This document shows positions 7,621-22,948 of a DNA stretch of 32,000 nt, one piece after another. Under the pieces are notes generated by a model. The model was not told the DNA's origin. It did no database searches and saw only the letters and a list, made by a program, of their open reading frames with translations. A program made the translations under genes and the position numbers. This DNA is from Microcystis aeruginosa NIES-2549 (lineage in GTDB: Bacteria > Cyanobacteriota > Cyanobacteriia > Cyanobacteriales > Microcystaceae). The DNA lies in the NCBI RefSeq assembly GCF_000981785.2, contig NZ_CP011304.1, positions 4,260,001-4,292,000 of the forward strand, read 5' to 3'. Within the stretch, counting starts at the first letter, position 1. Every line of letters begins with the position of its first letter.

Positions 7621-7790
7621 TTTGACTCTCCCCCGCTAACCGCTCGCGCGGTGTAGCGGGGGATTCTCGGTTCTTAGGCTTTTAACTAGATCGACCTGGT
7701 TTAACCGGTCGATCCCCGTCAAATCGCCTCCGCGAGCGTTTTCTAACACGGTCAGTCCGACCGCGTTTTTTCCTCGGTTCTCGATTACCT
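7601..7790 (-). ncRNA. Predicted TnpB omega (right-end) RNA: scaffold overlapping the tnpB 3' end plus a flank-derived guide
   Basis: Strong nested hairpin CCCCCGCT-ACCGC-GCGA-GCGGT-T-AGCGGGGG (7630-7662) at the element terminus. By analogy to characterised TnpB systems, the guide would be the ~20 nt beyond the right end (reverse complement of 7601-7620, atgggaaaaaatagctcatc). The extent is a guess. Confidence 0.35.
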
Positions 7791-8895
7791 TCGCTGATGC
7801 CGTATCTCTTGGTTCAATGTGGCCGCAGAAATTGCATCGGTGAACTCTTTCTGATAACGCTTTTTTGCCGGTAATCGCGCCACAATTAGGACACTCTTGC
7901 GAAGTTCCGTTTTTATCAACCTTAAGATAATATTTTCCCCGTTTCCAAACGACAAACGGTAGTATCTCGTTAATAAAACTACCGATGCCTGAATCCAGAG
8001 ATTGTTTTCTAACGATCCCTCTAGACCAGGAAACAAAGTTAATATCCTCAACGAAGATGTTATCAGCGAGATCGCAAAGGTAATGACTTAGTTTAAAGTG
8101 CCAATCTCTACGAGTATTAGACACTTTTTCGTGTAATCTTGCTATCTTCTCCTGAATTTTTAACCAATTGCTAGAGCCTTTGACTTGATGTTTCAAGCGT
8201 CTTTGTAGCAATTTAAGCTTACTCTGTACTTTCAACAAAAATCGAGGGGCTTTGATTAAATATCCCTGTGAAGTAGCGACAAAACTCTCAATTCCTGCGT
8301 CGATTCCTAAACAGGTTTTCCCAGCCGTTATATCGGGGACGGATTCTTGGGACTTAAAGGAAACCGAAACGTAAAATCCCGACGCTTTGCGGATAATTTG
8401 AGCTTGTTTAGGCTCAAACCCAGACGGGTACTCCCTAGATTTCCTAATCCGAATTTTTCCCAATTGTGGAAAATTTAAGTATTCGTCACCTAGAAAGTTT
8501 TTTGACAGCGCGGGGAAAACAAAACTTCGCATCTTTTTCTTAAATCTAGGAAAGCCGAAGCCTTTCGATTTCATGCGGTCAAACGCTTTATCTAAAGTTT
8601 TTAAGACTTGCTGTAAGACTTGAGCGTTAACCGTCTTTAATATCGGGTAAACTTTTTTAGCTTCCGTTAGATTTTTAGCTTGAACGAAGTAATTAGGATA
8701 GGGTTCATCCGCAGGAATTATGTACTCAGAAACTAGCGAACAGCGATCCGCAAGACACTTTCGAGAGTTCAACCAATCCTTCCGTTCCGAGAGCGCGTAA
8801 TTGTAAACGCTCTTGCCAACATCAAGAATGTGGACGATCTCCCGTTCCTGTTGCCTGTTTACCTTTAGTTTGTACTGGTAGGTAAGCGTTATCAC
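7636..8895 (-). CDS. tnpB: TnpB (IS605 OrfB / IS1341-type RNA-guided endonuclease), apparently intact
   Basis: 419 aa. Candidate RuvC residues at CLGIDAGIESF (D), IFVEDINF (E) and EPRDTASAKVI (D). Zinc finger CPNCG...CNFCG. Confidence 0.9.
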   Translation of the reverse strand: MITLTYQYKLKVNRQQEREIVHILDVGKSVYNYALSERKDWLNSRKCLADRCSLVSEYIIPADEPYPNYFVQAKNLTEAKKVYPILKTVNAQVLQQVLKTLDKAFDRMKSKGFGFPRFKKKMRSFVFPALSKNFLGDEYLNFPQLGKIRIRKSREYPSGFEPKQAQIIRKASGFYVSVSFKSQESVPDITAGKTCLGIDAGIESFVATSQGYLIKAPRFLLKVQSKLKLLQRRLKHQVKGSSNWLKIQEKIARLHEKVSNTRRDWHFKLSHYLCDLADNIFVEDINFVSWSRGIVRKQSLDSGIGSFINEILPFVVWKRGKYYLKVDKNGTSQECPNCGAITGKKALSERVHRCNFCGHIEPRDTASAKVIENRGKNAVGLTVLENARGGDLTGIDRLNQVDLVKSLRTENPPLHRASG

Positions 8896-14380: not shown

Positions 14381-14962
14381 ATGTCTTTATCACTGATTAC
14401 TCGTAAGTTTACGGTGGAAGAATACGAAAAAATGACAACCGAGGGAATAATCAAACCCGATGAAAAAGTGGAATTAATTCGAGGAGAAATTATCAAAATG
14501 TCACCGATGGGAACCCGTCATGCTGCCTGTATAGCTAGATTAACACAGTTATTTTATCGAAAATTCGGTGATCTTATTCTGTTAGGAGTGCAAAACCCGA
14601 TTAGATTAAATAATAATTCTCAACCAGAACCAGATTTAAGTTTACTAATACCTCGATCGGATTTTTATGTTGCTGCCTATCCTTGTCCTCAAGATATCTA
14701 TTTAATTATTGAAGTTTCCGATTCTACCCTCGATTATGATCGCTATACTAAAATCCCTCTTTATGCAGAGGCAAATATTCAAGAAGTTTGGATCGTTAAT
14801 CTCAAGGAAGAATGTTTAGAAGTTTATCGCCATCCGCTGCATGGTAGTTATCAAGCTATTCAGAAATATTATCGAGGTGAAATTATTTTTATTGAATCCT
14901 TTCCAGCAATAGAGTTAACTTTAATTGAAATACTCGGCAATAAAAGTGAGATCAAGGGGTAA
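14381..14962 (+). CDS. Uma2-family (DUF820) putative restriction-endonuclease-like protein
   Basis: 193 aa. FTVEEYEKM, ELIRGEII, and a PD-(D/E)xK-like core EPDLSL ... IIEVSDSTLDYDRYTKIPLYAEANIQEVWIVN. Confidence 0.85.
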   Translation: MSLSLITRKFTVEEYEKMTTEGIIKPDEKVELIRGEIIKMSPMGTRHAACIARLTQLFYRKFGDLILLGVQNPIRLNNNSQPEPDLSLLIPRSDFYVAAYPCPQDIYLIIEVSDSTLDYDRYTKIPLYAEANIQEVWIVNLKEECLEVYRHPLHGSYQAIQKYYRGEIIFIESFPAIELTLIEILGNKSEIKG

Positions 14963-14964
14963 AC

Positions 14965-15108
14965 TTAGATTTCGTCAGGATTAATGCCTAATTCCCGCAG
15001 TTTGTTCGCTAATCGTTCCGCTCGTTGTTTTTCCTGATTATAGCTAGTGAAAGCTTGTCCATCGGGATAAAAAAGCAACATTTCCGGTTCCCCTAACTGA
15101 AATTGAAT
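14965..15108 (-). pseudogene. C-terminal remnant of a second Uma2-family gene
   Basis: The minus-strand translation IQFQLGEPEMLLFYPDGQAFTSYNQEKQRAERLANKLRELGINPDEI* matches the typical Uma2 C-terminal tail. Stops (TAA TAA) lie immediately upstream and there is no N-terminal part. Confidence 0.55.
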
Positions 15109-15133
15109 TTATTAATTGATTTTTGAAAAATGG

Positions 15134-15277
15134 TAAGTAGCTGGTTATAATTAAATTTAAAATGGATTTTGGGTTCGATCCCCCCTTAGTCCCCCCTTGA
15201 TAAGGGGGGTGTCGATCCCCCCTTAGTCCCCCCTTGATAAGGTGGGTGTCTGATAATTTTTAACGCCTACCTACTTA
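15134..15277. mobile_element. 144-bp MITE with AGTAG.../...CTACT termini and flanking TA, carrying two 37-bp hairpin modules
   Basis: Ends read tgg-TA-AGTAGCTGG ... CCTACCTACT-TA-taag. Inside are 2 x gatccccccttagtccccccttgataagggg(g/t)gtgtc (15177-15250). The right end tctgataatttttaacgcctacctactta is homologous to 18576-18596. Confidence 0.6.
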
Positions 15278-15341
15278 TAAGCCAATAACACCACTCCAAA
15301 GGGGTCTAGTATAATTAGAAGAGGTTGATCAAAGGGGGTTT

Positions 15342-17696
15342 ATGGACGATAAAACCACAAAGCCGGAAGCATCGGAATCTGAAGAGAAAAAAGAATCAGA
15401 TTTTGACCAGGAAAAGGAACAGGCTCAAGTTTGGACGGGAAAAATCACTGCTTTTGTTGCCCATCAACTCCGAACCTCCGCTCCTTCCCTTCCAATTATC
15501 GGGGGTAGCATTACAGGTATCTTAACTTGGCTTAGTCAACATGACACGGTTAAGGCGATTATTGTCGGGGGAGTCACCTTTATCGTCACGGGCTTTTTTA
15601 CCTACGGATCAGCCTGGAGTCAAGGGTTTTTAGAAATAGCAAGAACCAAAGGTAAAAATCATGGTAAAGGTTCAGCTTTAAGCTTTTTTGTTTGGCTAGA
15701 CAAAGGACTGGAAAAAATACGTTGGCAATTAGCTAATCCTGACGGGAAATATTTAATTAAATTACGGGATTCAGATTGTCGTTATGATGATATTGAAGGG
15801 ATTGAAGATGCAATCTTTGGTTTTTCTACCCCAGAACTAGAAGAAATTTTTATTAATTTGGATCTGAGTCAATTAGAACTGCGCTCAGAAGAAGAGTCTA
15901 AAGGTACGGGGGATGATATTTGGGATTTATTGCGACGGGCTAAAAAGAGGACAAATTTACGGTTGTTAATTCTGGCTCCTGGTGGCCGAGGAAAAACGAC
16001 TTTATTGCGTCATTTAGCCTATAACTACGCTCTAAAACAACCGAAACAAAATGCACCTTTTTTAATTCCTGTCTTTTTACGTTTACGGAGATGGCAGGAA
16101 GTGATTACCACCACAGAAGGATTGGATTTACCAACCTTAATTGAGCGACATCTTAAACAAGATATTTCTCAAGAATTAGATTTACCTCAGCACTGGGCTA
16201 AAAGTCATTTAACCCGTCAGCGAATGTTAGTGATGTTTGATGGTTTTGATGAAGTTAAACCCGAATATGCCGAAAAAATCAGTCAATGGATTGGCAAACA
16301 GTGGCATGATTTTCGCCAAAACTATTTTATTTTAACCTCTCGTCCCAAAGGCTATCAAGCGTTTAGCTCTGAGCATAAACCTCGACAAAAGGTGTTTATT
16401 AATGAATTTACCGATAAAAATATTCATGATTTTGTCTATAAATGGTATTTCTGGCAAGAGCAGGAAACCAGAGTTAGCAGAAGTTTAAAAGCTAAACAAG
16501 AAGCTGCCGACAATAAAGCAAAGGATTTAATTAATCAGTTATTTGCTCTCGATGATTCCGGGGAAAGTTCTACTCTATTAGCCTTAGCGAGAAATCCCTT
16601 AAATCTGAATATGATAGTACAGTTACATCGGGCAAACTTTGGCTCGGAACAAAAATTACCTCAGCAACGAGTGGATTTATTTCGCCGAATTTTTGATCTG
16701 CAATTGATCACTCGCCCTCAAGCTAGGGGCATTGATATGATTTTAGATAATAATGAGGAAAATCATCGTCAACGGGTATTGCAACAGTTAGCCCTGAAAA
16801 TGGGAAATACAACCACGATTGAATATTCAGAATTACTGAGTTCTATACAAAATTTTATTCAGGAATTGGGTTATCCTGAAAGCACTTCGGCTAAGGATTT
16901 TGTAGAGCGGTTAATTCATGTGAGCGAGTTAATTTTGAAAAAGGATGAATACTATGAGTTTGCCCATAATCTTTTTCAGTCCTATTTAATTGCTTTGGAG
17001 ATTAAACGGTTAAAGCAAGAAAATTTACTCTGGGAAAATTGGGAACAAAATCTCTGGTACGAGACTTGCATTATGTATGCAACTTTATTGACTAATCCGA
17101 CTGATTTTATTGTCTATTTTTATAATCAATCTAATCCTAAAGCTCAGGGATTAGCGGAGCGATGTTATCGAGAATTACCTGTTAAAAAACGTCGAGGTTT
17201 GGAATTTTTAGAACAAAGACGACAGACTTCTCTCTTTACTCAACTAGAAACCTATCTGAAAAATGGCCAATGGCGCGAAGCCGATGAAGAAACGGCGCGG
17301 TTAATGTTGTTAATTGCTAAAAGGGAAGATGAAGGCTGGCTAGATGAAGAAAGTGCTGAAAACTTTCCCTGTGAGGAATTACGCACCATTGACAAGCTCT
17401 GGGTAGATAATAGCGGCAGCAAATTTGGCTTTTCTGTGCAGAAAAAAGTCTGGCTGGATTGCGGTGGTGTCCCAGGGGAATACGATTATGATGTGTATAA
17501 AAAATTCGCTGACGAGGTGGGTTGGCGCAGGAGCGGAAACTGGTTGAGCTATGATGAGCTAACTTTTTCATTAGAGGGTAGTCAACACGCATACCTACCG
17601 TCACCTTGGTGGAGGGTCGTGGGGCGCACACCAGGGGGGGGGGTTGGTCGCCGCGTGTGGTGGAGGGTATCTCTTTTCTCGCGCAGCGACTTGTAA
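15342..17696 (+). CDS. STAND NTPase: N-terminal transmembrane segment, NACHT domain and C-terminal GUN4-like domain
   Basis: 784 aa. Two hydrophobic helices at about aa 35-90. Walker A LILAPGGRGKTTLLRHL (aa 209-224) and Walker B MLVMFDGFDEV (aa 295-305). C-terminal YLKNGQWREADEETARLML ... LRTIDKLWVDNSGSKFGFSVQKKVWLDCGG ... VGWR ... LTFSL resembles cyanobacterial GUN4 domains. TATAAT at 15310 and a G-rich RBS lie before the ATG. Confidence 0.85.
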   Translation: MDDKTTKPEASESEEKKESDFDQEKEQAQVWTGKITAFVAHQLRTSAPSLPIIGGSITGILTWLSQHDTVKAIIVGGVTFIVTGFFTYGSAWSQGFLEIARTKGKNHGKGSALSFFVWLDKGLEKIRWQLANPDGKYLIKLRDSDCRYDDIEGIEDAIFGFSTPELEEIFINLDLSQLELRSEEESKGTGDDIWDLLRRAKKRTNLRLLILAPGGRGKTTLLRHLAYNYALKQPKQNAPFLIPVFLRLRRWQEVITTTEGLDLPTLIERHLKQDISQELDLPQHWAKSHLTRQRMLVMFDGFDEVKPEYAEKISQWIGKQWHDFRQNYFILTSRPKGYQAFSSEHKPRQKVFINEFTDKNIHDFVYKWYFWQEQETRVSRSLKAKQEAADNKAKDLINQLFALDDSGESSTLLALARNPLNLNMIVQLHRANFGSEQKLPQQRVDLFRRIFDLQLITRPQARGIDMILDNNEENHRQRVLQQLALKMGNTTTIEYSELLSSIQNFIQELGYPESTSAKDFVERLIHVSELILKKDEYYEFAHNLFQSYLIALEIKRLKQENLLWENWEQNLWYETCIMYATLLTNPTDFIVYFYNQSNPKAQGLAERCYRELPVKKRRGLEFLEQRRQTSLFTQLETYLKNGQWREADEETARLMLLIAKREDEGWLDEESAENFPCEELRTIDKLWVDNSGSKFGFSVQKKVWLDCGGVPGEYDYDVYKKFADEVGWRRSGNWLSYDELTFSLEGSQHAYLPSPWWRVVGRTPGGGVGRRVWWRVSLFSRSDL

Positions 17697-17720
17697 CCTG
17701 TAATATATCACAGATTTAGA

Positions 17721-18004
17721 CATCTTAAACCAGTAAAAAGCCCCCCTTATCAAGGGGGGTTGGGGGGATCAAACCTATGCAATTAACCCATCATCTTAAA
17801 CCAGTAAAAAGCCCCCCTTATCAAGGGGGGTTGGGGGGATCAAACCTATGCAATTAACCAATCATCTTAAATCAGTAAAAAGCCCCCCTTATCAAGGGGG
17901 GTTGGGGGGATCAAACCTATGCAATTAACCAATCATCTTAAACCAGTAAAAAGCCCCCCTTATCAAGGGGGGTTGGGGGGATCAAACCTATGCAATTAAC
18001 CAAT
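17721..18004. repeat. 71-bp tandem repeat x4; each unit contains the hairpin palindrome and the DUF559 start codon region
   Basis: The unit is catcttaaaccagtaaaaagCCCCCCTTATCAAGGGGGGttggggggatcaaacctATGcaattaacc(a/c)at. Anchors at 17721, 17792, 17863 and 17934 give a period of 71. Confidence 0.9.
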
Positions 18005-18424
18005 CATCATCATCTACCCTACAATCCCAAACTCGTAGAACGAGCCAAAGAACTCCGTAAAAATATGACCAAAGCTGAAAGAAAACTTTGGTATGAATAC
18101 TTAAAAAATTTTCAATATAGAGTTCATCGTCAAAGACCGATTGATCAATTTATTGTTGACTTTTATTGCCCCGAATTAAAATTAGTGATTGAAATTGATG
18201 GTGATATTCATAATAGGGAAGATGCTCAGAACTATGACTTAGAAAGAACCCAAATTTTATCAGGTTATGGATTAACAGTAATCCGCTTTACTAATCAAGA
18301 AGTTTTGAGTAATTTTGAGGGAGTTTGTGGAGTAATTGGAAGTTTGATCCCCCCAACCCCCCTTGATAAGGGGGGCTTTGATCCCTCCTTATTAAGGGGC
18401 TTTGATCCCCCCAACCCCCCTTGA
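17990..18424 (+). CDS. DUF559 (Vsr-like/PD-(D/E)xK) endonuclease-domain protein
   Basis: LPYNPKLVERAKELRKNMTKAERKLWYEYLK ... FRRQ-like HRQRPIDQFIVDFYCPELKLVIEIDGDIH ... ERTQILSGYGLTVIRFTNQEV is the DUF559 signature. The last ~30 codons (IPPTPLDKGGFDPSLLRGFDPPNPP) are encoded by the downstream repeat array. Confidence 0.8.
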   Translation: MQLTNHHHLPYNPKLVERAKELRKNMTKAERKLWYEYLKNFQYRVHRQRPIDQFIVDFYCPELKLVIEIDGDIHNREDAQNYDLERTQILSGYGLTVIRFTNQEVLSNFEGVCGVIGSLIPPTPLDKGGFDPSLLRGFDPPNPP

Positions 18425-18577
18425 TAAGGGGGGCTTTGATCCCTCCTTATTAAGGGGCTTTGATCCCCCCAACCCCCCTTGATAAGGGGGGCTTTGATCC
18501 CTCCTTATTAAGGGGCTTTGATCCCCCCAACCCCCCTTGATAAGGGGGGCTTTGATCCCTCCTTATTAAGGGGGATC
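18343..18577. repeat. 58-bp tandem repeat x4, the reverse-complement partner of the upstream array
   Basis: The unit is tttGATCCCCCCAACCCCCCTTGATAAGGGGGGctttgatccctccttattaaggggc. Anchors at 18346, 18404, 18462 and 18520. The first 30 nt are the exact reverse complement of ccccccttatcaaggggggttggggggatc in the 71-bp units. Confidence 0.9.
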
Positions 18578-18675
18578 TGACAATTTTTAACACCTAACTA
18601 ATTAGAGAGGAAAAGAATACCCAAAAAGTTCTATTGACAACTTTTACAAGAGAGATCAAGGAGAAAATCAAGGAT

Positions 18676-19944
18676 TTACAATCTCGGTTTCAGAACAGTC
18701 CACTGGGTTACGGGGGCCATGGCTTTCCAACCTAAAAACTTACCGACCGGTTCGGCTTTTTCAATGCCAATCCGCAGCAGTTCCCCTCCTAATTTACTAT
18801 GCCATTGCAAGAGGACTAATTCGCTTTCAATTGTAACAGTGTTGGCAACAAGACGACCCCCGGGGCGCAGGGCTAACCAACAGGTTTCCAATAGGTGGGG
18901 TGTGGTGATACCGCCACCAATAAAAATAGCGTCCGGTTGCGGTAAATCTTCCAAGGCACTCGGTGCGATTCCGGCGACGATTTGCAGATGGAGCGTTCCC
19001 AGGGCGGCGGCATTATCGGCAATGTATTGTAATCTGGTGGGATGATGTTCGATCGCAATCCCCTGGCAACGGCGATCGCTACGCAGCCACTCAATGGCAA
19101 TGGAACCACAACCTGCCCCCACATCCCAGAGCAATTGTCCGGGTAAGGGAGCCAATCTACTCAGCGTGATAGCACGAACTTCTCTTTTTGTCAACTGTCC
19201 GTCATGATGGTAGGCAGAATCCGGCAGTCCTGGAAGGCGCGGCGCCAGGGTGGGGGGATGGGAGGAGATGCAGCTAATGGCGATGACATTTAAATCCGCC
19301 AGATCTGTAAACTGCCAATCGTTGGCGATGCCTTGAATGTGGCGTTCTCGGGTTCCCCCTAGATGTTCTAAAACCGTGATGGAACTCTCGCCAAAACCTC
19401 CCTCCCTGAGCAGCCGAGCAGCGAGCGCCGGAGTCTGGGCATCAGCACTCAGTACCAGCAGTTTAGCGCCGGGATAAAGCACCCCATTCAAGCAGGCTGG
19501 GGGCCGACCGCACAAACTCAAAGTTTCCACTTCACTCAGGGACCAACCCAAACGACTACAGGCAAGACTGAAGGCAGAAGGAGAGGGAATAATCGTCATT
19601 TCCTCAAGGGGAATCTGACGGGTGAGGGTGACACCAATCCCGTAGCACATGGGATCACCACTGGCCAAAACACAGACGGATTGACCACGACGGCGGATAA
19701 TCTCGTTAACAGAGTCTTGGATGGGAGAAGTCCAGAGCAGTTTTTGCCGTTGATCCTCAGGGGGTAACATTGCCAGATGACGTTCACCACCGACAATAAC
19801 TGATGCTAAAGAAAGCAGACTTCGCCCCACCGAACTTAAACCTTCTAAGCCATCTTCACCAATTCCTATGATCGATAGCCATTTCGACTTACAATTGCGA
19901 TCCGCCATATTAAAAAAAATCGCTACTATTTCATTATCTGCCAT
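18676..19944 (-). CDS. cobL: Precorrin-6Y C5,15-methyltransferase (decarboxylating), fused CbiE/CbiT type
   Basis: 422 aa. N-terminal tetrapyrrole-methylase half (LSIIGIGEDG, VLASGDPMCYGIG) and C-terminal SAM-MTase half (LWDVGAGCGSIAIEW). An alternative start is M13 at 19908. Confidence 0.85.
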   Translation of the reverse strand: MADNEIVAIFFNMADRNCKSKWLSIIGIGEDGLEGLSSVGRSLLSLASVIVGGERHLAMLPPEDQRQKLLWTSPIQDSVNEIIRRRGQSVCVLASGDPMCYGIGVTLTRQIPLEEMTIIPSPSAFSLACSRLGWSLSEVETLSLCGRPPACLNGVLYPGAKLLVLSADAQTPALAARLLREGGFGESSITVLEHLGGTRERHIQGIANDWQFTDLADLNVIAISCISSHPPTLAPRLPGLPDSAYHHDGQLTKREVRAITLSRLAPLPGQLLWDVGAGCGSIAIEWLRSDRRCQGIAIEHHPTRLQYIADNAAALGTLHLQIVAGIAPSALEDLPQPDAIFIGGGITTPHLLETCWLALRPGGRLVANTVTIESELVLLQWHSKLGGELLRIGIEKAEPVGKFLGWKAMAPVTQWTVLKPRL

Positions 19945-20007
19945 CAGGCTCTATCCTTCAAACAAGATATAATTGGGTTAGTGCCAAGTTAATTGAGATG
20001 AAAAATT

Positions 20008-20655
20008 ATGACCACCACCGCCGATGATGTTTGGAAATTATTAGCCGAATTAGTAGAAGCTCAAAAAGAAACAGAAAGATGCTTTCAAGAAACCGAGCGA
20101 CGCTTTCAAGAAACCGAGCGTGTTCTCAAAGAACAATCTTTAAAAACCGAGCGACGCTTTCAAGAAACCGAGCGCATTCTCAAAGAACAATCTTTAAAAA
20201 CCGATCGCCAAATTACCAGAGTCAGTCAAGAAATTGGTAATCTTGGAGGTAAATGGGGACGTTTTGTCGAAAATATGGTAGCCCCAGCTTGTGAGACTTT
20301 ATTTTTAAATCGTGATATTCCCGTACATCAAGTTAGTCAAAGAGTCAGAAAACGTCTCGACGGTAAAACCCTAGAAATTGATGTGTTAGTAACTAATGAG
20401 AATCATGTGCTAGTAGTGGAAGTCAAAAGTAGTTTAAGTGTAGATGATGTCAAAGAATTAATCAAGAATCTAACAGAATTTAGGCAATTTTTCCCAGAAT
20501 ATAACCAGAAACAATTATATGGGGCAGTAGCAGGCATTGAAATCGAAGAGGGAGCGGATAAATATGCCTATCGTCAAGGTTTATTTGTCTTGGCACAAAG
20601 GGGAGAAAATGTAGCGATTCTTAACGATACTGAGTTTCAACCGAAAACGTGGTAG
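20008..20655 (+). CDS. Coiled-coil plus PD-(D/E)xK-like nuclease-fold protein (DUF3782-like), copy 1
   Basis: 215 aa. N-terminal heptad modules (ERCFQET, ERRFQET, ERVLKEQSLKT ...), then LEIDVLVTNENHVLVVEVKS (D...E-x-K). Near-identical to copy 2. Confidence 0.7.
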   Translation: MTTTADDVWKLLAELVEAQKETERCFQETERRFQETERVLKEQSLKTERRFQETERILKEQSLKTDRQITRVSQEIGNLGGKWGRFVENMVAPACETLFLNRDIPVHQVSQRVRKRLDGKTLEIDVLVTNENHVLVVEVKSSLSVDDVKELIKNLTEFRQFFPEYNQKQLYGAVAGIEIEEGADKYAYRQGLFVLAQRGENVAILNDTEFQPKTW

Positions 20656-20712
20656 GGGCTTTAAAAACAAGATATAATCAAGTTATTGTCAAGTTAATTC
20701 AGATGAAAAATT

Positions 20713-21348
20713 ATGACCACCACCGCCGATGACGTTTGGAAATTATTAGCCGAATTAGTAGAAGCTCAAAAAGAGACAGAAAGATGCTTTCAAGAAACCG
20801 AGCGACGCTTTCAAGAAACCGAGCGGATTCTCAAAGAACAATCGTTAGAAACCGAGCGGATTCTCAAAGAACAATCTTTAAAAACCGATCGCCAAATTAC
20901 TAGACTCAGTAAAGAAATTGGTAATCTTGGCGGTAAATGGGGACGTTTTGTCGAAAATATGGTAGCTCCAGCTTGTGAGACTTTATTTTTAAATCGTCAG
21001 ATTCCCGTACATCAAGTTAGTCAAAGAGTCAGAAAACGTCTCGACGGTAAAACCCTAGAAATTGATGTGTTAGTAACTAATGAAAATCATGTGCTGGTAG
21101 TGGAAGTCAAAAGTAGTTTAAGTGTAGATGATGTCAAAGAATTAATCAAGAATCTAACAGAATTTAGGCAATTTTTCCCAGAATATAACCAGAAACAATT
21201 ATATGGGGCAGTAGCAGGCATTGAAATCGAAGAAGGAGCAGATAAATATGCCTATCGTCAAGGTTTATTTGTCTTGGCACAAAGGGGGGAAAATGTAGCA
21301 ATTCTTAACGATACTGAGTTTCAACCGAAAACGTGGTATGATCCTTAA
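20713..21348 (+). CDS. Coiled-coil plus PD-(D/E)xK-like nuclease-fold protein (DUF3782-like), copy 2
   Basis: 211 aa. Tandem paralog of 20008-20655 including ~45 nt of upstream sequence. Lacks one ERRFQET module and has a different C-terminal end (..TWYDP). Confidence 0.7.
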   Translation: MTTTADDVWKLLAELVEAQKETERCFQETERRFQETERILKEQSLETERILKEQSLKTDRQITRLSKEIGNLGGKWGRFVENMVAPACETLFLNRQIPVHQVSQRVRKRLDGKTLEIDVLVTNENHVLVVEVKSSLSVDDVKELIKNLTEFRQFFPEYNQKQLYGAVAGIEIEEGADKYAYRQGLFVLAQRGENVAILNDTEFQPKTWYDP

Positions 21349-21349
21349 G

Positions 21350-21465
21350 CTTGTCTTTGGGAAAGTCCAGTGCGATTCTGGTACTGTGCCGCAGCTGTAA
21401 TCAAGTAAAAAGTAAAAAGAGTACATCTTCCCTTTTTCCTTGCGAGTCAGAATGCCAATTACAAG
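21350..21465 (+). promoter_or_regulatory. Cobalamin riboswitch (short form, no large peripheral extension) upstream of cobG-cobH-cobI
   Basis: GGGAAAGUCCAGUGCGAUUCUGGUACUGUGCCGCAGCUGUAA (21359-21400) closely matches the conserved core as I recall it from E. coli btuB (GGGAAUCCAGUGCGAAUCUGGAGCUGACGCGCAGCGGUAA). B12-box-like AGUCAGAAUGCC at 21445-21456. Closing helix CUUGU (21350-54) / ACAAG (21461-65). Confidence 0.7.
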
Positions 21466-21532
21466 TTTTTAATCGGTAGATAGACAAATATTTTCTAACT
21501 ACTTCTCTGCGTCGCATGGAGAACAAACAACG

Positions 21533-22948
21533 GTGAATTGGTTAGTTGAAGCAAATGCTTGTCCTGGTTTATTTTATGGAACTGCTGCCCAGGATGGGTT
21601 TTTAATTCGTCTCCGCACCCCCGGTGGATGGCTCAATTCTCCACAGGGAAAAGCGATCGCCACTTGGCTCGAACAATGGCAGACGACAATACAAGTTACC
21701 AATCGGGCAAATCTGCAAATTCGCGGACTGCAAAAATCCCCCAGTTTAGAAGAATTTCAAACCCTGCAAAAATTAGGGTTAGCCGCCCATAATCCCAGTA
21801 TCGATCATCTGCGTAATATCATGTCCAGTCCCACGGCTGGAATTGACTGTCAAGAATCGATCGATACTCGTCCATTAGTCCAAGAATTAGATAATTTTAT
21901 CCAAAATTATCCATCAATTGCCCAACTAAGTCCTAAATTTAGTATCGGCATCGATGGCGGTGGTGCAGTGGGAATTGGCACCGGTTCAACTATGGCCTGG
22001 CAACACCGCTATAATGAGATTCAGCTATCAGCAATTGTCCTCAATAATCCGAAAAATTTAACTTCTATTCTTTGCTTTCGATTAGCCCTCGGAGGAGATA
22101 AACAATTATATGACACGGACTTATTAATTGAGCCAGAAAACTGTTTAGCTGTGGTCAAAGCTTTAGTCACAGTTTATATCGATTATGTTCAACAAAACCC
22201 CAATATCAAGGGTAAAAAACCTCGGATGAAACACCTGCTCAAAGATTGGGGATTGACAAAATATCTCGAACAAGTTAACTACCAATTACATCGGACTTCT
22301 ACCGGCATAATACAAGGGCAAGAATACCAGCAGGCTGCCCATTCTACTCAACCCTATTTTCATCTGGGAATTCATCCTCAAAAGCAACCAGGATTATCTT
22401 ATATTGGTCTATCATTAAGATTAGGACAATTGACGGCTAATCAACTATGGGGATTAGCGGCACTATCAGAAACTTTTGGCAGTGGTCAGTTACGATTAAC
22501 CCCTTGGCAGACTGTTATATTACCCGATATTCCCGATGAAAAAGTCTCAGAATTGTTGCCAAAACTGGCATCCTTAGGATTATCCGCTTCTCCCGGATGG
22601 GATGCGGGGATAGTTGCCTGTAGCGGTAAACCGGGCTGTGCGGCGGCGGCCACTGCAACTCAAATTCATGCTTCTCTCTTGGCAGATTATTTGAAAGAAC
22701 ACTTAACCTGCAATTCTCCTGTTAATATTCACTTGACAGGTTGTGCTAAATCCTGCGCTCAACCGGGTCCGGCCGAAATTACCCTTTTAGGAACTACCAT
22801 CGAGGAAAATGGCCAAATACTAGAAGCTTATCAAGTCTATATGGGTGATAGTCAAAAATTCTTAGAAACACCCATATTTGAGGGAGAATTTACCAAGATT
22901 CCCCCCCTCATAGCCCAAATTTTAAGCTCCCAAAAATCGAAAATTTAG
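21533..22948 (+). CDS. cobG: Precorrin-3B synthase (CobG; sulfite/nitrite-reductase-like)
   Basis: 471 aa with a GTG start. N-terminal ACPGLFYGTAAQDGFLIRLRTPGG is the CobG signature. C-terminal Cys cluster CSGKPGCAAA ... GCAKSC. Confidence 0.8.
   Translation: MNWLVEANACPGLFYGTAAQDGFLIRLRTPGGWLNSPQGKAIATWLEQWQTTIQVTNRANLQIRGLQKSPSLEEFQTLQKLGLAAHNPSIDHLRNIMSSPTAGIDCQESIDTRPLVQELDNFIQNYPSIAQLSPKFSIGIDGGGAVGIGTGSTMAWQHRYNEIQLSAIVLNNPKNLTSILCFRLALGGDKQLYDTDLLIEPENCLAVVKALVTVYIDYVQQNPNIKGKKPRMKHLLKDWGLTKYLEQVNYQLHRTSTGIIQGQEYQQAAHSTQPYFHLGIHPQKQPGLSYIGLSLRLGQLTANQLWGLAALSETFGSGQLRLTPWQTVILPDIPDEKVSELLPKLASLGLSASPGWDAGIVACSGKPGCAAAATATQIHASLLADYLKEHLTCNSPVNIHLTGCAKSCAQPGPAEITLLGTTIEENGQILEAYQVYMGDSQKFLETPIFEGEFTKIPPLIAQILSSQKSKI

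Follow-up and report, generated by a model that had tools for sequence, protein, structure and literature searches.

The 32,000-nucleotide (nt) stretch of Microcystis aeruginosa NIES-2549 analysed here (NZ_CP011304.1, positions 4,260,001 to 4,292,000; hereafter the window) carries on its forward strand, at positions 15342–17696, a NACHT-GUN4 gene that begins with ATG, stops with TAA (17694–17696) and encodes 784 residues, as delimited from the open reading frame (ORF) list, Pfam matches and homologues. Its product is an NLR-like STAND NTPase, in which an N-terminal hydrophobic hairpin is followed by a NACHT module with a helical arm and by a C-terminal GUN4-fold domain. The 3′ end of the gene consists of a hypervariable cassette and a short conserved DNA element, which in most other cyanobacteria leads into a gene for a Y1-family HUH endonuclease. 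The NACHT NTPase domain (15981–16445) scores 54.3 bits over residues 214–368 against a cut-off of 26.7 (PF05729, E = 1.9e-14). Its Walker A motif (15981–16001; G214-G215-x-G217-K218-T219-T220), its Walker B motif (about 16227–16253; D300-G-F-D303-E304) and a TSRP sensor motif are all invariant in a 21-sequence alignment. Between NACHT and the sensor, a helical and winged-helix arm (16446–17222) is modelled with confidence as helical by AlphaFold2 and aligns with NLR HD1/WHD/HD2 in Foldseek. The GUN4-fold core (17223–17600) matches PF05419 over residues 628–753 (E = 1.4e-33, 116.4 bits; cut-off 29.2), the match ending at profile position 123 of 141, and by sequence this region also matches the solved GUN4 structures 7e2r (E = 2.7e-13) and 1y6i (E = 4.8e-8). 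The core closes with Y751-L752-P753 (17592–17600), of which L752 and P753 are invariant or nearly so across the family. In the AlphaFold2 model, built on 83 homologues, the mean predicted local distance difference test (pLDDT) score is 75, residues ~190–745 are confident and the NACHT module exceeds 80; Foldseek matched this model to NLRP3, NOD2 and NLRC4 (E ~ 1e-12, probability 1.0). The initial annotation, made from the DNA letters, had proposed the 784-residue ORF with NACHT and GUN4 domains, clear Walker A and B motifs and an NLR-like layout, and all of these are borne out, with the hydrophobic module in the effector position and GUN4 in the sensor position.

Homologues of ~780 residues numbered at least 288 in the first search and come from Microcystis, Snowella, Xenococcus, Crocosphaera, Calothrix, Spirulina, Leptolyngbya and others, and species-representative genomes added 166 further NACHT-GUN4 loci. 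The architecture is a new member of a class that was already predicted. Specifically, cyanobacterial NACHT proteins with a C-terminal GUN4 domain were predicted to track the state of photosynthesis or changes induced by viruses (Kibby et al. 2022, bioRxiv 10.1101/2022.07.19.500537; Kaur et al. 2021 is also cited for this prediction), and fusions of GUN4 to kinases, caspases, trypsin and TIR have been described (Kaur et al. 2020, PMC7159879). The NACHT-GUN4 hypothesis of the initial annotation is therefore correct as a description and repeats a published prediction.

The N-terminal hydrophobic hairpin (residues 46–65 and 69–92; 15477–15617, + strand) was delimited by hydropathy and by the conserved residues P51 and G54, which are invariant in the family alignment, and it lies in the position of an NLR-like effector. 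Two transmembrane helices had been suggested here, and the two segments fare differently. For segment 69–92, the Kyte-Doolittle mean over 19 residues is 1.72, and in 70 of the 83 family members this segment comes to at least 1.6. Segment 46–65 is marginal at 1.16 (family median 1.22; at least 1.6 in 6 of 83), a value no higher than that of internal helices in the soluble part, and AlphaFold2 builds a helix in neither, with residues 43–91 below a pLDDT of 50. The region carries the conserved pattern W.P.GGSG...FP.T..VWAAY, and because this conservation is family-wide, the hairpin is, as judged from the alignment, a genuine conserved module.

Directly behind Y751-L752-P753 the gene enters a hypervariable cassette of 69 nt (17601–17669, + strand), G/T-rich and placed at the lid loop between helices α6 and α7 of Gun4. 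This 3′ end, the gene's most striking part, went unnoticed in the initial annotation. Microcystis strains are 91–99% identical over the preceding 160 nt, cannot be aligned for ~40–90 nt past the Y/H-L-P codons, and are near-identical again from 17670. Among 42 full-length Microcystis orthologues there are 27 distinct tails with at least 15 unrelated cassettes, read out in all three frames, and at least 7 cassette types occur within one 90% cluster of these orthologues. Across the family the cassette is 14–115 nt long, its length modulo 3 is distributed 16:20:26, and its composition (G 38%, C 13%) differs from that of the rest of the gene (24.5% and 20%). The window's cassette stays below a pLDDT of 50 in the AlphaFold2 model. 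The same sharp borders are seen in close pairs that retain the Y1 gene, in which identity is 75–91% in the GUN4 core, falls to ~50% in the 120 nt that precede the element, and stands at 98–100% in the element itself and 94–98% in the conserved block behind it. In pairwise alignments, identity runs up to GGACACCTCCC (G-H-L-P), gives way to unrelated G/T-rich DNA of differing length, and resumes from TCTCTTCTCTCGC. The codons of the left border are themselves biased towards CAC-CTC-CC, with CAC used for 83% of His (background 28%) and CTC for 55% of Leu (background 10%). Cassettes open in all three frames are mildly enriched (26% versus 15%), from which we claim no selection for openness. No template copy of a cassette of the kind used by diversity-generating retroelements (DGRs) was found within ±10 kb of the loci. 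Since cassettes have no copy in their own loci, the system is not a DGR.

The position of the cassette bears directly on the ligand. Y751-L752-P753 is the equivalent of H206-L207-P208 of Gun4. In Synechocystis Gun4 (1y6i, residues 196–233), this motif is followed by L209-LNQLR214GVR217VAE; the cassette takes the place of L209–E220 and thereby occupies the positions of L210, N211, R214 and R217, where it has no conserved Arg or other residue. GUN4 domains with such a cassette in the lid are referred to here as fusion-type. In Gun4, the porphyrin was placed over Leu210 and Arg214 was described as 'absolutely essential' for porphyrin binding (Verdecia 2005, PMC1084334). Because the cassette replaces the L209–E220 loop with Leu210 and Arg214, a canonical fixed site for Mg-protoporphyrin or protoporphyrin IX is unlikely in NACHT-GUN4 proteins as predicted from their sequences. 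The tetrapyrrole-type ligand that the initial annotation had favoured is thus weakened at the Arg214 segment, and the lid loop looks like a specificity surface.

A sensor of tetrapyrrole or bilin status would account for the protein differently. Here, the 'greasy palm' of GUN4 would bind a chlorophyll or haem precursor or a bilin, the tail would be a neutral linker, and the NACHT switch would report photosynthesis status or phage-induced pigment changes. This is in line with the good conservation of the GUN4 core and its homology to GUN4 structures that bind porphyrins and bilins, with the same prediction in Kibby 2022 and Kaur 2020, and with the methylase genes that adjoin in two Microcystis arrangements (CobL in the window and in L004; TP_methylase+HEM4 in L001). 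Additionally, Verdecia 2005 suggested other metabolites as ligands for those GUN4 paralogues that have no Arg214. However, the lid with Leu210, Arg214 and Arg217 is replaced by unrelated cassettes, and if there were one conserved small-molecule ligand, a single genus would not be expected to carry 15 or more alleles. Adjacency to tetrapyrrole genes outside Microcystis is limited to one CobL gene 4 kb away in L057. Such a sensor also leaves unexplained the nucleotide constraint at both cassette borders and the dedicated HUH partner described below, and we consider it unlikely.

On its 3′ side the cassette is bounded by a terminal conserved DNA element, TCTCTTTTCTCGCGCAGCGACTTGTAACCTGTAATATATCACAGATTTAG (17670–17719, + strand), composed of a (CT)n tract and two GTA[AG] heads; nhmmer matches 17670–17708 to the element profile with E = 6.9e-13. 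For 72 of 85 sequences, a nucleotide profile of ~40 nt picks out the end of the gene (E values down to 5e-14), although the proteins are merely 33–42% identical. The conservation has no 3-base periodicity, and the three frames are used in the proportion 32:24:19. In the window, the frames of the element encode SLFSRSDL, LFSRAATCNL and FLAQRLVTCNISQI, each running into a stop codon. In 80 loci, the motif L..R..[TS]C.[LIV] occurs 29 times in the used frame and 29 times in an unused frame; its background is 4.7e-6 per codon, with 13 occurrences in 2.76 million codons elsewhere compared with 63 at the element. Frames B and C retain the conserved Cys (..TC.L and ..VTC.I), and frame A, which the window uses, is without it. 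Across cyanobacteria, the element of ~45 nt is thus conserved as nucleotide sequence and is translated in each of the three frames; elsewhere in the ~1.3 Mb of cyanobacterial flanking DNA it was not found. A protein-only motif is ruled out, since the conservation includes wobble positions and runs on past stop codons and the motif occurs in unused frames. Read-through into a MITE, a miniature transposable element with inverted repeats, is ruled out by the family-wide pattern HLP...L.SR..TC.L, and small antisense ORFs across the element are short and unconserved. Outside Microcystis, conservation extends ~125 nt beyond the element start, that is, over the element and then a conserved block of ~90 nt; in Microcystis, which has lost the Y1 gene, the first ~45 nt of the element are still conserved. 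In L078, L048, L103 and L007, the 5′ part of the element is duplicated in tandem or in part, and the duplications coincide exactly with the border between variable and conserved DNA. Rfam covariance models gave nothing near gathering scores in window positions 14900–18700 or at this position in 7 other loci. Two further copies were noted. On plasmid pCC7120epsilon of Nostoc sp. PCC 7120 (L171, 1044–3974), a 976-residue NACHT-GUN4 protein ends in FLSRIENCGL, the tail motif being kept in the protein and the DNA element diverged, with a tyrosine recombinase gene and no Y1 gene downstream. The Microcystis paralogue P0049 has the element on a contig that stops 300 nt past the gene and is uninformative on Y1.

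Outside Microcystis, the conserved block ends at a convergent ORF of ~255 residues that encodes a Y1_Tnp/IS200-like HUH tyrosine enzyme (Pfam E = 2.8e-18). At NACHT-GUN4 loci this gene is full-length in ~17 cases and present as remnants in ~9. Y1 enzymes have been divided into mobile class 1.1 and low-copy, domesticated, RAYT-like class 2, of which subclass 2.1 has neither REPs nor an assigned function (Quentin et al. 2018, PMC6006769). By its motifs NHVH, FWE and YIH[AG]NP, its size and its low copy number, the enzyme falls into class 2, closest to subclass 2.1. The family has 788 database members, mostly on 1–2 contigs per cluster. In 119 of 120 members, both the HUH and the Tyr motif are preserved, and the enzyme is predicted from these motifs to be catalytically intact. 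Mean pairwise identity is 72% for Y1 and 44% for the adjacent NACHT-GUN4 proteins; for co-divergence of the two, the Pearson coefficient is 0.63 and the Spearman coefficient 0.15, which is not significant.

Loci seeded with Y1 lead back to GUN4. In five of five Y1-seeded genome loci, the enzyme faces a convergent gene ending in GUN4, together with cassette, element and block; this gene encodes NACHT-GUN4 in L085 and, uncalled by the annotation, in L086, caspase-GUN4 in L087, a GUN4-only protein in L088 and kinase-GUN4 in L089. In a larger set of metagenome and genome sequences, 56 loci found through Y1 extended 700 nt or more past its stop codon, and GUN4 was counted within 900 nt. A convergent GUN4 domain was found in 51 of the 56 (91%), and three of the five exceptions retain the Y1-proximal GATACCTGGCAC motif and look like rearrangements. 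Of the loci with at least 3.3 kb, 36 of 38 (95%) have GUN4, and NACHT accompanies it in only 11 of those. All 44 complete partner ORFs contain GUN4, and their N-termini are NACHT (12), caspase C14 (10), AAA_35 (4), TIR (4), kinase (3), trypsin (2), CHAT (2) and KAP (1). Additionally, a Cylindrospermopsis plasmid carries a GUN4 protein of a MoxR system together with a Y1 gene annotated as 'transposase'. Partners of the Y1 enzyme are therefore GUN4 3′ ends in nearly every case, regardless of which effector lies at the N-terminus. Of the fusion-type module defined in this way, with the element directly behind a variable cassette and a convergent class-2 Y1 gene within ~0.1–0.5 kb, the window has the first part and lacks the second. 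The searched literature contained no link of GUN4 with IS200, RAYT or Y1 enzymes or with hypervariability, and the phylum-wide three-frame element and the 91–95% Y1-GUN4 pairing appear to be undescribed.

Taken together, a hypervariable cassette beside a Y1-paired element hints at an undescribed route of bacterial immune-sensor diversification. We propose that the NACHT-GUN4 protein is an NLR-like immune sensor whose lid loop is diversified, probably by Y1 where that enzyme is present, and that the window holds a Y1-less copy; the chances that this reading holds seem to us about even. In a sensor of this innate-immune type, binding of a trigger to the GUN4 pocket and the lid would lift the autoinhibition of NACHT, the released protein would oligomerise, and its clustered N-terminal hairpins would damage the membrane (abortive infection). 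The lid cassette would then be a specificity-determining surface under diversifying pressure, with no fixed Mg-protoporphyrin site. As to how diversity arises, the Y1 enzyme, where present, may generate it by binding a GTA[AG]-tagged site on single-stranded DNA and nicking C^T dinucleotides in the (CT)n tract, with TCTCTTCTCTC as candidate sites, possibly also in CACCTCC at the left border. The free 3′-OH would be processed or extended and then religated, giving junctions of random length, and the CT-repeat element would tolerate any junction, every frame yielding a Ser/Leu-x-Arg ending. The related TnpA_REP acts on single-stranded DNA only, requires a GTAG-tagged site and cleaves C^T with low specificity over more than 400 nt; by strand transfer, the enzyme 'can create sequence variability' as well as tandem amplification (Ton-Hoang et al. 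2012, PMC3333891). The window copy would be a Y1-less descendant, one allele read in frame A, and would now vary only by recombination and G-tract slippage. This specific version, a generator of diversity independent of reverse transcriptase, in which a class-2 Y1 enzyme nicks C^T at the lid codons next to an any-frame element and the Microcystis copy is a frozen allele, is put forward tentatively; we regard it as possible, though rather doubtful.

Several results weigh against the proposed sensor and its diversification. First, a Y1 homologue was absent from the window and from every Microcystis locus examined, and because these loci still show many cassette alleles, a cis-encoded Y1 enzyme is not needed to maintain cassette diversity. 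Microcystis cassettes are also less G/T-rich than those of Y1-bearing loci. Cassette turnover is found between strains of ~5–10% flank divergence and is absent from near-identical pairs, so that it is seen on evolutionary, not somatic, scales. Known Y1 enzymes act on hairpin substrates. Here, RNAalifold gave an energy of 0 on both strands of element and block, that is, no conserved fold; perfect stems were not enriched there (0.33 per sequence versus 0.31 in shuffled sequences); and a small NCTG..CAGN′ stem was enriched only ~3-fold, leaving no convincing hairpin. The immune function of NACHT-GUN4 proteins is predicted by NLR logic, and the membrane-effector role of the N-terminus is predicted from hydropathy alone. 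PADLOC returned no NACHT-system match in the window, the locus, with its housekeeping neighbours, does not look like a defence island, and phage records contained no matches to GUN4 domains or to the module. Finally, the gene is frequently split or truncated in Microcystis, as in L005 (3764–6142), L011 (9974–12438) and reference strain NIES-843 (MAE_02650, P0260), and P0244 and P0274 form an interrupted NACHT-GUN4 copy on one contig; this fits dispensability, and decay as well.

Some of these points would follow equally if the Y1 gene were a passive relic, an IS200-like element that entered the 3′ end of an ancestral fusion-type GUN4 gene a single time and has since been inherited with it, without a role for the enzyme in variation. 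The element and block would be the transposase's own end, a terminator or a 3′ untranslated region, and the cassette an unconstrained, slippage-prone G-rich linker. In line with this, Y1 was lost many times (remnants at ~9 loci, nothing in Microcystis) and GUN4 genes persisted, no hairpin or covariation points to an active site, Microcystis kept its diversity without Y1, and G-runs such as the G10/G9 pair do slip. On the other hand, the enzyme belongs to low-copy, domesticated class 2 and not to mobile class 1.1, its catalytic motifs are preserved, its sequence varies less than that of the neighbouring gene, and its 91–95% association with GUN4 ends spans at least 8 protein architectures. Relaxed constraint would predict gradual divergence, not the sharp-bordered replacement of whole cassettes, and it does not predict the codon constraint of the left border. 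The first ~45 nt of the element also stay conserved in Microcystis after the loss of Y1. We judge a passive relic to be improbable.

The breadth of partners could alternatively reflect a mobile module, in which the GUN4 domain, the element and Y1 travel together and fuse to the 3′ ends of effector genes, so that the cassette is junction debris. The same module does end proteins with many unrelated N-termini, it is reduced to a minimal pair of GUN4-only gene and Y1 in L088, and the higher identity of Y1 (72%) than of NACHT-GUN4 (44%), with the weak rank correlation between the two, is in line with such transfer. Nevertheless, nucleotide conservation does not begin until the terminal element, which is downstream of the GUN4 core, the cassette lies inside the supposed unit instead of at the junction on its outside, most Y1 clusters are found on no more than 1–2 contigs, and no conserved end was noticed upstream of the GUN4 domain, where no systematic search was made. 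A mobile module is thus very unlikely. Still more remote is a phase-variable tail, in which slippage of the G tract toggles a Cys-containing (..TC.L or ..RLVTC.I) and a Cys-less (..SRSDL) ending and thereby the sensor on and off, with the window in the short state: frames B and C keep the Cys and frame A does not, and DNA alignment with three-frame translation places a G10 homopolymer (17634–17643, + strand) before the window's SLFSRSDL ending and a G9 tract before the LFSRAATCNL ending of L006, one G apart, yet most family cassettes have no long homopolymer, frame differences mostly accompany wholly different cassettes, and homopolymer sequencing error is possible in single cases.

Returning to the proposed diversified sensor, its parts can be compared with known systems. 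The protein shares an effector-NACHT-sensor layout and an NLR-like fold with the bNACHT anti-phage proteins of the 'other C-terminal sensor' class (Kibby et al. 2022/2023), from which it differs in its short hydrophobic hairpin in place of an enzymatic or Death-like effector; cassette, terminal element and Y1 partner are unmentioned in the searched bNACHT literature. With canonical GUN4/Ycf53, the Mg-chelatase cofactor (1y6i, 1z3x, 4ykb and 7e2r), it has in common the fold family, the ...FGFSVQ..W... helices and the H-L-P motif, whereas its α6/α7 loop with Arg214 and Arg217 is replaced, the GUN4_N domain is missing and the domain is fused to immune-type effectors. Separately, a plasmid collection contained GUN4-like domains in 16 Streptomyces plasmid records as well as in cyanobacterial ones, so GUN4-fold sensors are not confined to cyanobacteria; a plasmid of Microcystis aeruginosa FD4 encodes a GUN4-like domain fused to a 'SAV_2336 N-terminal domain-related protein'.

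A conceptual precedent comes from NACHT and MoxR conflict systems whose sensors are diversified by DGRs (PMC10907252). DGR targets likewise combine a hypervariable sensor patch at the 3′ end with a conserved DNA border (Dore et al. 2024; Vallota-Eastman et al. 2020; Kaur et al. 2020), share the effector partners NACHT, caspase, kinase, TIR and MoxR-vWA, and lie next to a dedicated nucleic-acid enzyme gene. Unlike DGRs, GUN4 loci have neither reverse transcriptase nor template repeat and have a Y1 HUH partner instead; change affects whole cassettes and their length in all three mod-3 classes, not single A positions at fixed length, and it is borne by a GUN4 fold and not by a C-type lectin/FGE fold. 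The likeness to RAYT/TnpA_REP lies in the NHVH, FWE and YIH[AG]NP motifs, the low copy number, the GTA[AG] and C^T-rich DNA beside the gene, and the local variability and tandem duplications, which resemble TnpA_REP products in vitro. In contrast to RAYT/REP-BIME systems, the cognate DNA of the GUN4-associated Y1 is a single site overlapping a coding 3′ end, not a set of dispersed extragenic palindromes. A G-rich non-template strand also marks sites of sequence change in G4-dependent antigenic variation of Neisseria pilE and in immunoglobulin switch regions. The cassette resembles these in its G-rich composition, by analogy only, and unlike at pilE, no silent donor cassettes were detected for GUN4 cassettes.

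Should the association reflect mechanism, bacteria would have a second route to diversify immune-receptor surfaces, using an HUH nickase where DGRs use a reverse transcriptase, and its logic of random-length junctions would be nearer to V(D)J junctions than to DGR substitution. 'REP-less' class-2 Y1/RAYT-like endonucleases would gain a first cellular role, and NACHT, caspase, TIR, kinase and MoxR-vWA effectors would gain a diversifiable receptor surface. GUN4 fusions would then be variable-specificity receptors and not sensors of chlorophyll precursors, which would be relevant to the ecology of Microcystis blooms and their phages. Even without the mechanism, the three-frame element and the Y1-GUN4 pairing stand as directly testable observations.

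In the window, the place held by the conserved block and the Y1 gene in other cyanobacteria (as compared with Snowella L035 and other loci) is taken by a DUF559 cassette (17721–18573), whose ORF (17990–18424, + strand) encodes a Vsr-like nuclease. Tandem Repeats Finder located a 71-nt array of 4.1 copies at 17721–18008 and a 58-nt array of 4 copies at 18343–18573; the ORF begins and ends inside these arrays, which carry perfect 38-nt inverted repeats of each other. Lying between such repeats, DUF559 is a self-contained cassette, and it looks like a mobile or homing one. Where the flank is long enough, DUF559 comes next after the gene in 8 of 9 Microcystis loci; outside the genus it does so once (L068, on the opposite strand). 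Upstream of the gene lie a further copy of the same Microcystis palindromic repeat family (15171–15250; a 37-nt array of 2.2 copies), so that the framing of the gene by repeats is confirmed, and a gene for a Uma2-family nuclease (14381–14962, + strand; Pfam E = 2.3e-34). Uma2 is a neighbour without being a conserved partner, as it is missing from other Microcystis loci and near the gene in 3 loci outside the genus. DUF559 and Uma2 are lineage-local selfish cassettes, and neither they nor CobL, being unconserved outside Microcystis, qualify as functional partners.

The further genes of the window include a lone TnpB, endonuclease III (Nth), an RseP-type protease, a phycobilisome protein, fibrillin and BolA and, beyond DUF559, CobL, two NERD/PD-(D/E)XK paralogues, a sulfite/nitrite-reductase-like protein, CbiC, a second tetrapyrrole methylase and DprA. 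Nucleases do flank the gene as first noted; the accessory or defence context read from them is offset by these housekeeping neighbours and by the PADLOC result. PADLOC reported only PD-T4-6, on the GUN4 part alone, and a weak mad8 P-loop match. Positions 303–428 of the PD-T4-6 model (PDLC04062) match window residues 623–758, the GUN4 domain, with E = 2.7e-34, which suggests that the model contains a GUN4-like C-terminal region. The model also labels ordinary PASTA kinases in S. thermophilus and is therefore a source of false PD-T4-6 calls; as it moreover covers the GUN4 region only, PD-T4-6 was dropped as a precedent for GUN4 in defence. The left flank varies by Microcystis strain, being BolA/Uma2 in the window, an ABC transporter in PCC 9432 and PPDK in NIES-2522, and the right flank is conserved. 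The gene thus resembles a syntenic core gene in being widespread in Microcystis with a constant right flank, but not in its variable left flank and often split copies.

A tetrapyrrole methylase gene follows NACHT-GUN4 and DUF559 in two Microcystis arrangements, CobL in the window (18676–19944, − strand) and likewise in NIES-2522, and a TP_methylase+HEM4 fusion in PCC 9432 (L001, 13652–15169, − strand), a pattern unseen outside Microcystis. Between CobL and the remaining cobalamin genes of the window lie two tandem paralogous ORFs (20008–20655 and 20713–21348, + strand) with weak NERD/PD-(D/E)XK matches, whose equivalents in NIES-2522 (L004) are labelled DUF8196. The TnpB gene of the window (7636–8895, − strand; OrfB_IS605, Cas12f1-like TNB and HTH_OrfB_IS605) has no adjacent Y1 TnpA and is unrelated to the GUN4-associated Y1 family. 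Less than 10 kb from NACHT-GUN4, the NIES-2522 locus (L004) additionally encodes a NACHT protein (1–1176) and a KAP_NTPase-FGE-sulfatase protein (19598–22243), the latter an architecture typical of DGR targets.

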